Program-made: the position numbers and the translations under genes | Source: Escherichia coli | GTDB lineage: Bacteria > Pseudomonadota > Gammaproteobacteria > Enterobacterales > Enterobacteriaceae | Assembly (NCBI RefSeq): GCF_030013595.1 | Contig: NZ_CP122768.1 | Reading direction: 5' to 3' (one strand) | Length of the DNA: 64,000 nucleotides | Shown: piece by piece, positions 30,357-33,500 of the stretch | Position numbering within the stretch: the first letter of the stretch is position 1 | Layout: each line of letters starts with the position of its first letter | Notes under the pieces: model-generated | Told to the model about the DNA's origin: nothing | What the model saw: only the letters and a program-made list of their open reading frames with translations | The model's database searches: none

Positions 30357-30434
30357 TGTAGATTGATCCAGTAATTCCCTCAGAATTGCATATCAATTTG
30401 CTTAAAATCCTCGGTGGCGGCCGGGGATTTTTTC
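30357..30434 (+). ncRNA. oop: oop antisense RNA (pO promoter TTGAGT-N17-CATAAT; hairpin + T6 terminator overlapping cII 3' end)
   Basis: Promoter-like hexamers at 30322-30350, terminator hairpin 30407-30434 antisense to the cII/O junction. Confidence 0.5.
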
Positions 30435-30676
30435 TTTGTGATTTCATCAAGCGCATACTTAAAAGCCCTGCTAATCGGACTGATGTCTGATGCCATTCCG
30501 AAAGCACACAAGACCGAAGCAATAAATCTCCAGTCCGTTCTGCTTATCTTCGATTCATGACAGCCAATCATCTTTGCCAGACCGCGCTGGGTAAGCGTTG
30601 ATAGGTTGATGAGTAAATCTGTTTCTGCGCGATCAACGTCACGCTGTGATAGTTTGCTGTAACTTGTTCGTTCCAT
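30380..30676 (-). CDS. cII: CII-like transcriptional activator (non-λ allele)
   Basis: 98 aa, HTH, C-terminal …KKKSPAATEDFKQIDMQF resembles λ CII tail; position between cro and O. Confidence 0.8.
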   Translation of the reverse strand: MERTSYSKLSQRDVDRAETDLLINLSTLTQRGLAKMIGCHESKISRTDWRFIASVLCAFGMASDISPISRAFKYALDEITKKKSPAATEDFKQIDMQF

Positions 30677-30817
30677 TTCTTAAGATTTCCAATAGTGAAT
30701 AGTTAGTTGAAAGGTATGCGTGGAAACGCATATGGCCTTAGTTGGTCAGATATCTTGGGACTCGCTTTTCAGCGACGTAGGACGAATGTCCGTTGTTACA
30801 AAGAGCGGCTCCGCTTA

Positions 30818-31033
30818 TTAAGCGGCTTTGTGTTCCGGCGGGAACACGTCATCAAGACTTACTTTTGCGCCTAACTTATTTAGGCACGCAACAAGAGCAC
30901 GGCATGTTTTAAGGTCTGGGAAGCGACGACCAGATTCCCAATGTCCGATAGCTCCCTGTGTGCATCCAACTGCCTTAGCAAGTGTTGTTTGAGAGATATT
31001 CAGTGACTCTCGATATTTTCGTAGGTTGCTCAT
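30818..31033 (-). CDS. cro: Cro-like repressor (XRE-family HTH, non-λ specificity)
   Basis: 71 aa from MSNLRKYRESLNISQTTLAKAVG; divergent from cI. Confidence 0.75.
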   Translation of the reverse strand: MSNLRKYRESLNISQTTLAKAVGCTQGAIGHWESGRRFPDLKTCRALVACLNKLGAKVSLDDVFPPEHKAA

Positions 31034-31143
31034 ATGCCCTCCATAGTAACCTCGAATAAAAAATACAATATGTACTTTCCAAATACAAGCAAAAATACAC
31101 ATTGTGCATTGATGGTTCCAGTACAGAGCGTAATAATAAGGAC
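31034..31143. promoter_or_regulatory. OR/PR/PRM divergent control region; candidate operator half-sites around TACAATATGTACT
   Basis: 110-bp AT-rich intergenic between divergent cro and cI; related palindrome AGTACATATCGTACT found in the OL region. Confidence 0.55.
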
Positions 31144-31803
31144 ATGAAAATGAAATGGTATGAACTGGCTAGATCCAGAATGAAAGAGCTCGGCATAACT
31201 CAAGAGAAGTTAGCCGAAGAGCTAGGTATGACGCAGGGTGGGATTGGACACTGGTTGCGCGGATCTCGTCATCCATCTCTTAGTGATATTGGTGTGGTGT
31301 TTAAATACCTTGGTATTGATAACATATCATTCAACCACGACGGGACATTTTCACCTGTTGGCGAATACTCATCGGCCCCAGTTAAAAAACAATATGAGTA
31401 CCCTGTATTTTCTCATGTTCAGGCTGGGATGTTCTCTCCAGAACTCAGAACCTTTACCAAAGGCGATGCGGAGAGATTGGTAAGCACAACCAAAAAAGCC
31501 AGTGGCTCTGCATTCTGGCTTGAGGTTGAAGGTAATTCCATGACCGCACCAACAGGATCCAAGCCCAGCTTTCCTGACGGGATGTTAATTCTGGTTGACC
31601 CTGAGCAGGCTGTTGAGCCAGGCGATTTCTGTATAGCCAGACTTGGTGGTGATGAGTTTACCTTCAAGAAACTGATCAGGGATAGCGGTCAGGTGTTTCT
31701 ACAGCCACTAAACCCACAATACCCAATGATCCCATGCAATGAGAGTTGTTCCGTTGTGGGGAAAGTTATCGCTAGTCAGTGGCCTGAAGAGACGTTTGGG
31801 TGA
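31144..31803 (+). CDS. cI: CI repressor, chimeric: non-λ N-terminal HTH domain, λ-identical linker and S24 autopeptidase domain
   Basis: C-terminal [15 protein letters not shown]…SQWPEETFG as λ CI; N-terminal ~90 aa unrelated to λ CI; AAGGA RBS before ATG. Confidence 0.85.
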
Positions 31804-31930
31804 TAGGAAGTAAGTTTTATGTTGACGGCACAGTCAACTTGGCATAGATTAATTAAACCAAGCCCAGCCCCGTTCGCAGACAATTGTTAATATCTGCATA
31901 ACGGCTCTGGGCTATTTTTTTGGGACTCTT

Positions 31931-32788
31931 ATGAAGAAAGCAGCAATTTTAATTGATGCGGGTTTTTTCATGCAGCGTGTTCATGCTACGCATCGTAAAC
32001 ACTTCGCCGAGCATGAACTGACTGCGCAATGCATAATGAAAGTAATATGGTCAATGGTTCTTTCCCATCTTAATGGAAAACGTCAATCACAAGAACGTAG
32101 GGAACCGCTTGAGCTTTATAGAATTTACTTCTATGACTGTCCACCACTCGACATTCAAACACGCCTTCCACTTCCTGAGCCTGGCAATAAGACGCCTGGT
32201 CGCAAGAATTTCAAACTCGAAAAATCATATATTCTGAGAACGGAGCTGCATGAAGAGTTAAGAAAAACTCGAAAAACAGCCTTAAGATTAGGGAATCTTG
32301 TTGATAATAAGCGATGGCAACTAACTACATTCTCCCTTGATGCTCTGATGAAAGGAACGAAAAAATGGGATGAACTGACAAATGATGATTTTTACTATGA
32401 CATCAAACAAAAACAAGTTGATATCAAGCTAGGGATGGATATCACGACTTTAGCTTATGAAAAACTTGTTGATGTAATTGTCCTTGTTGCTGGGGACTCA
32501 GACTTTGTGCCTGCCGCCAAACACGCCAGAATTAAAGGTATTGATTTTATTCTTGATCCACTAAGACAGAATGTTACCCCATCACTGTCAGAGCACATTG
32601 ATGGAGTTCAGTCATACAGCTTGATATCAGGACTTGCCGATGCTTTACATGTTGAGCCAGACCCGGCACCTGACTGGTGGGAAGATCGAAAAAAAGGCAA
32701 GCCTAGAGGAAAAAACAATAGCGGTAAACGCAGGTATGGAAACACTCAAGCTGAGTCAGCAAAGAAACATCAAAGAAATAAACGATAA
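31931..32788 (+). CDS. NYN/PIN-like nuclease-domain protein (285 aa) with basic C-terminal tail, in rexAB position
   Basis: N-terminal AILIDAGFF, central VDIKLGMD, distal DVIVLVAGDSDFVP motifs consistent with NYN (LabA-like) fold; Lys/Arg-rich tail; AT-rich; co-oriented downstream of cI. Confidence 0.75.
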   Translation: MKKAAILIDAGFFMQRVHATHRKHFAEHELTAQCIMKVIWSMVLSHLNGKRQSQERREPLELYRIYFYDCPPLDIQTRLPLPEPGNKTPGRKNFKLEKSYILRTELHEELRKTRKTALRLGNLVDNKRWQLTTFSLDALMKGTKKWDELTNDDFYYDIKQKQVDIKLGMDITTLAYEKLVDVIVLVAGDSDFVPAAKHARIKGIDFILDPLRQNVTPSLSEHIDGVQSYSLISGLADALHVEPDPAPDWWEDRKKGKPRGKNNSGKRRYGNTQAESAKKHQRNKR

Positions 32789-32797
32789 TCCCATCAA

Positions 32798-32824
32798 CCC
32801 GGCCACCGAGCCGGGTTTTCTTTG
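32798..32824 (+). terminator. rho-independent terminator after the NYN gene
   Basis: cccggc-caccga-gccggg hairpin followed by TTTTCTTTG. Confidence 0.6.
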
Positions 32825-32999
32825 CCTCACGCCCCCACCTAAAGACACATAACCAAATGTATTTATTGAAAAATAAATAGATACAACTCACTAAACCACG
32901 CAATTCTGATCTCTCCTTACATCGCCGAGGCGATACACCCACGCTAAAAAACAACACTATTAAATACAAAGCGTTATAAAAAATCACCCCATTTTAGAA

Positions 33000-33050
33000 C
33001 AAATTGTATTGACCCAATAAAGTACATATCGTACTATTTAACCGTCAGCA
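33000..33050 (+). promoter_or_regulatory. pL/OL region (TTGACC-N17-TACTAT; palindrome AGTACATATCGTACT)
   Basis: Promoter-like hexamers and operator-like palindrome upstream of nutL and N. Confidence 0.5.
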
Positions 33051-33083
33051 GGACGCTGTAAGCCAAACGGAGCAGACTGGCAG

Positions 33084-33129
33084 GCTCTTTAAACAACGTC
33101 GAACACTCGACTACGTGGCTGAAAAGCCA
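33084..33129 (+). promoter_or_regulatory. nutL: nutL: boxA (GCTCTTTAA) and boxB hairpin (TGGCT-GAAAA-GCCA)
   Basis: boxA consensus-like 33084-33092; 5-bp stem with GAAAA loop 33116-33129, upstream of N. Confidence 0.6.
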
Positions 33130-33227
33130 GATCACCCAACCATATAAGCTGTGGGATGCAATGCCGAAGCAACCGTCTCAGGAGGAGCTTCGAGATTGCA
33201 TCGCCAAAGTTTATTCGGGAGGAATCT

Positions 33228-33500
33228 ATGTCCAGAAAAACAGAATTTAAAGGCACCGCAGCTTCTCGCCGTAGAGCTCGTCGTGCAAACCTGCAAAGTC
33301 AGGAGGCGATCAGCTCTGACAAGCTACACAGGCCAACCCCTTCACGAGTGGTCTTACAATGCAAACGCAAACCAGTAATGAGAGCAGAAGTAATAACACT
33401 GACAACGTTGACCAGAAAATATGAAGGCTCAACTTGTCTTCCAAATGTAGCCATTTACGCGGCAGGCTACAGGAAATCCAAACAGCTGACAGCAAGATGA
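33228..33500 (+). CDS. N: N-type antiterminator (arginine-rich motif), non-λ allele
   Basis: 90 aa from MSRKTEFKGTAASRRRARRANL (ARM), GGGAGG RBS, downstream of nutL. Confidence 0.75.
   Translation: MSRKTEFKGTAASRRRARRANLQSQEAISSDKLHRPTPSRVVLQCKRKPVMRAEVITLTTLTRKYEGSTCLPNVAIYAAGYRKSKQLTAR

Follow-up and report, generated by a model that had tools for sequence, protein, structure and literature searches.

A λ-like Escherichia coli prophage with what is very probably a VT2-Sakai/Sp5-Nil2-type immunity module and an old joint within cI

The DNA considered here is a stretch of 64,000 nucleotides from Escherichia coli (contig NZ_CP122768.1 of assembly GCF_030013595.1), called the window below. It is a λ-like prophage in which cI and the leftward genes are read on the + strand, and its immunity region, at 30380-33500, contains a cI repressor gene that resembles that of phage λ over only part of its length. 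With λ NC_001416 as the reference for the backbone, identity is 96.5% in the head and tail genes (3104-21098), 97.5% in the ninB-P-O segment (27949-30441) and 98.5% in the segment from ral to the attachment site (33534-40192). The breakpoint comparison gives the 97.5% block as 28033-30441. Between 30442 and 33533, resemblance to λ is limited to two pieces, 31393-31807 (94.7%) and 32796-32915 (88%). The right border of the module is found at 30441/30442, in the last ~60 nt of cII and over oop; the terminal ~62 nt of cII (30380-30441) are identical to λ and overlap oop. The φ21 record marks a 'border lambda immunity' at the equivalent place in cII, so that this is the classical imm boundary, and a terminator scan places an oop-type hairpin (30404-30431, +) just inside it.

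The cI gene (31144-31803, +) encodes a protein of 219 amino acids, and the N-terminal sequence that had been quoted for it in a preliminary description of this DNA is present in the product. Codons 1-83 (31144-31392, +) encode a non-λ helix-turn-helix (HTH) domain for DNA binding together with the beginning of the linker, and codons 84-219 (31393-31803, +) encode the end of the linker, the cleavage site and the S24 peptidase/oligomerisation domain, all of λ type. When the gene is aligned with λ cI at the nucleotide level, the DNA upstream of 31393 is unalignable. The match begins at TAT GAG TAC CCT (Y84-E-Y-P) and runs to the stop codon, so that the break at nt 31393 is sharp. From codon 84 to the stop, 21 of 411 nucleotides differ from λ (94.7% DNA identity), and 19 of these 21 changes are synonymous. 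At the protein level only two of the 136 residues differ, W129L and D138G in λ numbering, which gives 98.5% identity to λ residues 101-236, and tblastn finds the same 98.5% for these C-terminal 136 residues against both λ CI and the CI of HK97, a phage of λ immunity. The N-terminal 83 amino acids, in contrast, are 29.8% identical to λ CI over 47 amino acids. The preliminary description had proposed a natural hybrid repressor with its crossover at the domain boundary, and a highly λ-like N-terminal domain (NTD) would have spoken against it; the values of 98.5% and 29.8% bear the proposal out, and the NTD is not that of imm-λ.

The two halves of the protein can each be assigned to a family. Residues 1-71 match phrog_4, phrog_3 and phrog_8, which places the NTD with the HTH_3/XRE domains of S24 CI repressors; the Pfam assignment PF01381 was available precomputed for P0002, a protein near-identical to this CI. 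A PDB search relates the NTD to the solved λ NTD at E = 0.003, with remote matches also to the P22 and 434 NTDs, that to the 434 repressor being weak (E of at least 0.25). The C-terminal domain (CTD) carries the S24 features, namely a VQA/GMF cleavage site (A94-G95), a serine in GNS132M and K175, and it matches PDB entries 3bdn, 8gmu and 2ho0. The joint corresponds to λ residue ~101, within the linker (λ residues 93-131) and 10 residues upstream of the Ala111-Gly112 scissile bond. Since it lies upstream of the cleavage site, the parts on which self-cleavage and the contacts within dimers, tetramers and octamers depend are all λ-type; what is non-λ is the DNA-binding domain with the beginning of the linker.

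S24 domains are conserved across LexA, UmuD and CI proteins, and one might ask if the λ-like half of this repressor simply reflects functional constraint, or convergence on the autopeptidase fold, with no recombination involved. This is extremely unlikely. The resemblance extends to the DNA, where identity is 94.7% and nearly all differences are synonymous, yet the adjoining 5' half cannot be aligned, and the C2 repressor of P22, which has the S24 fold and function in common with this CTD, is only 46% identical to it there. A survey of related repressors speaks against constraint as well. Because the 83-aa NTD returned only fragments as a protein-database query, the search was seeded with the CTD, and it yielded 77 repressors with a λ-type CTD. 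These carry three unrelated NTD supertypes, which are the λ type, the type found in the window, and a type beginning 'MHEIIGERIK'. Near-identical CTDs sit on unrelated NTDs in 117 cross-type pairs (CTD at least 93% identical, NTD less than 35% identical). Mean CTD identity is much the same within supertypes (79-84%) and between them (80-83%), and for 46 of the 77 proteins the nearest CTD neighbour carries a different type of NTD. Across these enterobacterial repressors, the histories of the two halves are uncoupled. In one E. coli allele with an NTD of the 'MHEIIGERIK' type (P0037), identity to λ starts only at a point well inside the C-terminal part, so crossovers in cI are not confined to a single point or to the linker.

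The CTD DNA of the window is itself patchy. It differs from that of phage VT2-Sakai at 20 of 411 nucleotides, with the first ~90 nt resembling VT2-Sakai (matching variants at roughly 31425-31478) and the last ~90 nt resembling λ (matching variants at roughly 31716-31802). None of the complete E. coli genomes in the collection contains 31393-31803 at 99% identity or more; phage E212 is identical over this segment. Together, the survey and the patchy CTD DNA show that homologous exchange has taken place repeatedly in and near the conserved sequence of the linker and the C-terminal part.

The module as a whole has many relatives. A region of 3121 bp, including a gene for an NYN-domain protein that is described below, is 99.9% identical in phage E212 (MZ043897) and 97.0% identical in 2B8 (NC_049952). 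Without the NYN gene, about 96.5-97% identity over ~68% of the query is found with dozens of Shiga toxin (Stx) phages, across cII-cro-cI and across the left operator region (OL) and N. These include the VT2-Sakai type, 1717, Nil2, 2851, YYZ-2008, Stx2 II, the Stx1-converting phage NC_004913 and the PA series. The CI NTD is 100% identical in Nil2, 1717-type phages, 2B8, PhiR11_1, the Stx1-converting phage and the PA series, and the full-length hybrid CI is 96.8% identical in the P22-like phage 683R2. The same hybrid is thus present on backbones that are not λ-like, in VT2-Sakai (Traversvirus) and in 683R2 and E212 (both Lederbergvirus). In the VT2-Sakai record AP000363, the cI frame (locus 3001-3660) is interrupted at codon 31, where a stop stands in place of Q, and the annotated cI begins only at a start further downstream. 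In 5426 complete E. coli genomes, the segment from cro through the right operator region (OR) to the NTD part of cI occurs at 800 places in 775 genomes, or about one genome in seven. λ-type cI CTD DNA was found in 1196 of the 5426, at a total of 1414 places and with a maximum of three in any one genome, and more than half of these copies are joined to the non-λ NTD of the window. It appears from these counts that the NTD of the window is the commonest context of the λ-type CTD in E. coli, and that co-resident copies are frequent.

CI, Cro and the operator set all place the window in the VT2-Sakai/Sp5-Nil2-1717 immunity type. A survey from 2022 (PMC8951638) describes this repressor as 'Clade I' of the Stx-phage CI proteins, the clade closest to λ CI, and reports the similarity only as an overall identity of 61%. 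The immunity region is therefore common, already known and catalogued. The preliminary description had seen in it a distinct immunity specificity on a λ backbone; the NTD and the operators are indeed non-λ and the flanks are 97-98.5% identical to λ, but the specificity is of a known type and not a new one.

The distribution also bears on the age of the joint. It could be imagined that, in this very prophage, a resident λ and a heteroimmune phage entering the cell recombined inside cI and so produced a new repressor. The λ backbone at 97-98.5% on both sides would fit such a recent crossover, as would the 3' third of the CTD DNA, which has the λ variants and not those of VT2-Sakai, as could result from a local homologous exchange with a λ-type cI. 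Against it, the full-length hybrid is found at 97-99% identity on the VT2-Sakai, 683R2 and E212 backbones and the module segment in 775 complete E. coli genomes, the CTD (94.7%) is less similar to λ than is the flanking backbone (97.5-98.5%), and orthologues in other enterobacterial genera, such as a Citrobacter freundii protein, combine this type of NTD with a λ-type CTD at matching divergence (81% and 85%). The idea of a recent crossover is thus largely refuted and must be regarded as very unlikely. The break in λ similarity within cI is an old recombination joint in the linker that travels with the module, and not an event of this genome, because the hybrid occurs on unrelated backbones, because its CTD is less λ-like than its surroundings, and because in other genera the same NTD type is paired with co-diverged λ-type CTDs.

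The architecture also resembles that of the classical laboratory imm hybrids of λ (of the λimm434 or λimm21 kind), whose right border is at the same place in cII and oop, and a chimera made during assembly was considered as well. The probability of such an artefact or laboratory origin is close to negligible. Phage isolates that are independent of each other, and hundreds of complete genomes, show the same arrangement; at 96.5-98.5% identity to λ, the backbone falls short of the ~100% to be expected of a laboratory λ; and the junction between the prophage and non-λ sequence is exactly at the λ attP core (λ position 27724).

The cro gene (30818-31033, -) encodes an all-α protein of the HTH type with 71 amino acids (phrog_3). 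It has no match at E ≤ 0.01 in λ, P22, φ21, HK97 or HK022, and in the PDB it matches 28tn_A (E = 4.5e-17). Cro is 35% identical to the NTD of its own CI over 62 amino acids (E = 9e-13), which makes the two paralogous, and the core of the recognition helix, TQGxIGHW, is found in both, so that both could read identical sites. The cII gene (30380-30676, -; phrog_191, E = 7.5e-37) is an allele of the HK022/HK97 type, with a product that is 94% identical to CII of HK022, 93% to HK97, 82% to φ21 and 35% to λ. That Cro, CII and N are non-λ alleles had been suggested in the preliminary description, and pairwise comparison of cI, cro, cII and N with λ, 21, P22 and HK97, to which HK022 was added, upholds these assignments: neither Cro nor N has a λ match, and CII has the 35% just given.

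Two palindromes built on GTAC half-sites had been noted in the control regions, and both were located, at 31064-31076 (TACAATATGTACT) in OR and at 33021-33035 (AGTACATATCGTACT) in OL. They turn out to be part of a set of six 17-mers with the consensus AArTACAnnnyGTAyT. In OR, these are OR1 (AAATACAATATGTACTT, 31061-31077), which is situated between the inferred -35 and -10 of PR, is conserved in 683R2 and is a 'putative operator' in NC_004913; OR2 (AAATACACATTGTGCAT, 31093-31109), which abuts the -35 of PRM and is centred at about -43 from the cI start; and OR3 (CAGTACAGAGCGTAATA, 31119-31135), over the spacer and -10 of PRM. In OL they are OL3 (AAATACAAAGCGTTATA, 32962-32978), OL2 (TAGAACAAATTGTATTG, 32995-33011), overlapping the -35 of PL, and OL1 (AAGTACATATCGTACTA, 33020-33036), overlapping its -10. 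The record NC_004913 lists 'putative operators', three for each of the two control regions, which are the same six sites; five of the six agree exactly, and OL3 is 1 nt off the annotated operator. Comparison with 683R2, a diverged relative, shows conservation at the flanks of the operators and variation at their central bases. Exact matches to RTACANNNYGTW number nine in the 64 kb, and six of these nine are inside the two control regions of ~75 bp. A looser pattern, GTACANNNTGTAC with up to two mismatches, is found 25 times over the whole window where 17.5 are expected, which is not significant. The case for these operators is thus made by their clustering, the enrichment of exact matches, the conservation in 683R2 and the existing annotation, and not by the total count. 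No site resembling λ OR1 is found within three mismatches in the window, so the operators are not those of imm-λ.

Promoters can be placed around the operators. A promoter scan finds a PRM-like promoter (TTGATG-17-AATAAT, 31109-31137, +) where NC_004913 has its maintenance promoter, and this would be its function here too. The cI mRNA made from it would be leaderless or near-leaderless, starting at or near the ATG. The same scan finds PL (TTGACC-17-TACTAT, 33009-33037, +). A putative PR is placed at about 31060-31088 (-) by analogy with PL and by the annotation of NC_004913.

The N gene (33228-33500, +) encodes 90 amino acids of the HK97/P22 type (phrog_271, 6e-26), with an arginine-rich motif, AASRRRARRA, near the N-terminus. 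The protein is 97.8% identical to N of VT2-Sakai, 42% to HK97 N and 38% to P22 gp24, and in this comparison it has no λ match. It is followed, out of frame, by a remnant of the last 17 codons of an N of the λ/21 type (TCVGRQKMKLGSKPLI*, 33500-33550, +). The remnant matches the end of the λ-type N of 683R2 (its 3' end) at 100% identity and is also present behind N in HK97 and VT2-Sakai; it is the mark of a joint inside the gene, at the 3' end of N. With the joints at the 3' end of cII and in the linker of cI, this makes up the set of intragenic joints in this lambdoid mosaic.

Both nut sites consist of a boxA, a short inter-box hairpin, the letters UACG and then boxB, and they lie downstream of PL and PR. 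In nutL (33084-33129, +) these are boxA GCTCTTTAAACAACG at 33084-33098, the hairpin at 33098-33111 and boxB UGGCU-GAAA-AGCCA at 33116-33129; in nutR (30762-30807, -) they are boxA CGCTCTTTGTAACAACG at 30791-30807, the hairpin, and boxB UCGCU-GAAA-AGCGA at 30762-30775. The second pair of the boxB stem is compensatory, being G-C in nutL and C-G in nutR. The preliminary description had given the boxB of nutL a GAAAA loop. The letters are there, but the predicted fold in both sites is a stem of 5 bp closed by a GAAA loop of four nucleotides, a true GNRA tetraloop, and the reading as a pentaloop does not hold. The boxB pentaloop of λ, P22 and HK97 extrudes one base and so takes on a GNRA-like fold; the tetraloop predicted here has no base to extrude.

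The slot that λ uses for rexA-rexB is filled by something else. λ similarity ends 4 nt past the cI stop codon, and an open reading frame (ORF) of 285 amino acids with an NYN domain follows at 31931-32788 (+). It matches Pfam NYN (1.1e-8), phrog_5783, a family of unknown function (1.5e-119), and, weakly, the PADLOC models NYN and HEC-09; scans with PADLOC and NCBIfam gave weak NYN matches only, and no defence system could be assigned. A promoter-like site (TTGACG-17-TAGATT, 31822-31850) precedes the ORF and a terminator (32796-32817) follows it. Just after the ORF, λ similarity returns for 120 nt, in a block that is 88% identical to the post-rexB region of λ (32796-32915, +) and opens with this terminator hairpin. 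The NYN ORF is found in E212 and 2B8 and is absent from VT2-Sakai, which has a different ORF (orf22) in the slot, and from 683R2, which has none. Because λ similarity stops after cI and resumes after the ORF, the rex slot has the look of a site for exchangeable cargo, with conserved sequence on either side, and the product of the NYN ORF may be a prophage-encoded exclusion or defence nuclease.

Some features of the wider window may be added. Little or no similarity to λ is seen in the prophage stretches 21099-24237 and 25144-27948 and at 1-3100; judged by position, these are the cos-to-Q region, some of the nin region and the end with the tail fibre. In an Rfam scan, 30380-33500 matched no known RNA family; outside it, the λ cIII thermoregulator element (RF01804, 88.5 bits) was found at 34440-34498 (+), as expected for a λ-like early-left region.

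What has been described so far, that is the gene identities, the breakpoints, the sequences and clustering of the operators, the distribution and the uncoupling of the domains, comes together in one reading. Very probably, the region is the lysis-lysogeny control of a natural λ-like prophage in which a VT2-Sakai/Sp5-Nil2 module has replaced imm-λ, with a joint in cI that is old and shared. How the switch would work, including DNA binding, cooperativity, autocleavage, activation of PRM and the immunity phenotype, is taken from homology. CI dimers would bind all six of the 17-bp operators, three of which belong to OR and three to OL, through their non-λ helix-turn-helix. Bound CI would shut off PR and PL and, from OR2, would probably activate PRM. 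The λ-type C-terminal module is expected to supply dimerisation, higher-order cooperativity and RecA-stimulated self-cleavage at Ala94-Gly95, with a Ser132/Lys175 dyad; the self-cleavage, and with it inducibility, is predicted because the cleavage module is near-identical to that of λ. Cro, as a paralogue of the CI NTD, would compete for the same operators, and the N protein of HK97/P22 type would act at nutL and nutR. Judging by sequence, heteroimmunity is expected between the lysogen and λ, and homoimmunity between the lysogen and Sp5/1717/Nil2-type Stx phages, the latter because the NTD, Cro and the operators are identical.

Several points weigh against this reading or limit it. PR failed the consensus promoter scan. 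Measured from centre to centre, the operators of OR lie 32 and 26 bp apart and those of OL 25 and 33 bp apart, compared with 24 and 23 bp in λ OR. The repressor survey, being seeded with the CTD, samples λ-type CTDs only. Either λ CI or this CI may be 'the hybrid', and the original exchange may have gone in either direction. No binding, cleavage or immunity experiment was found in the accessible literature.

For annotation, the value of the result is that a λ-like prophage can be labelled as having Sp5/1717-type immunity, with a predicted homoimmunity to a clinically important group of Stx phages. Otherwise it illustrates, as cleanly as a textbook example, a familiar kind of lambdoid mosaicism and leaves current understanding unchanged. 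Only the family-wide uncoupling of the repressor halves and the frequent co-residence of λ-type CTDs perhaps merit a dedicated study. A tentative and rather doubtful suggestion is that the λ-type CTD lets co-resident heteroimmune repressors form mixed dimers or octamers, and that the CTD DNA serves as a standing tract of homology. [quoted passage not shown]

Fattah et al. (in 2000) reportedly described domain sharing between the repressors of heteroimmune or cross-immune lambdoid phages, for example 933W and HK022, which is a different pair of domains; the principle would be the same as here, in that the halves have separate ancestry and immunity follows the N-terminal half and its operators. 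When the window is set against λ itself, the layout of the switch is the same, with PRM and PR pointing away from each other, three operators in each of OR and OL, and an OR2 adjoining the -35 of PRM, but its parts differ. The NTD lacks the N-terminal arm of λ CI, is 18 amino acids shorter and is ~30% identical; Cro is not of the λ Cro type but an all-α HTH paralogue of its own repressor; the operators are unrelated, with TATCACCGC in λ and a TACAnnnyGTA core here; boxB has a GAAA loop where λ has a 5-nt GAAAA or GAAGA loop; and rexAB is absent. HK97 is similar in its antitermination system. Its nutR agrees with that of the window in boxA, in the inter-box hairpin and in the stem of boxB, with a loop, GACAA, that is one nucleotide longer and also found in P22, and its N has the same ...YAAGYRKSKQLTAR end followed by the same out-of-frame N remnant, but the central part of N has diverged here and is shorter. 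For the module as a whole, VT2-Sakai (Sp5) is a very close counterpart, with CI 99.1%, Cro 100%, CII 96.9% and N 97.8% identical and with the nut sites and the N remnant in common. Its backbone is different, however, being of the short-tailed Stx-phage type with an HK022-like O and a DnaB-like P, whereas O, P, red, head and tail are those of λ in the window. Phage E212 has the λ-type O and P seen here, but it is a P22-like Lederbergvirus with other structural genes, and in the early-left region it ceases to resemble the window, at about 33675-33990.

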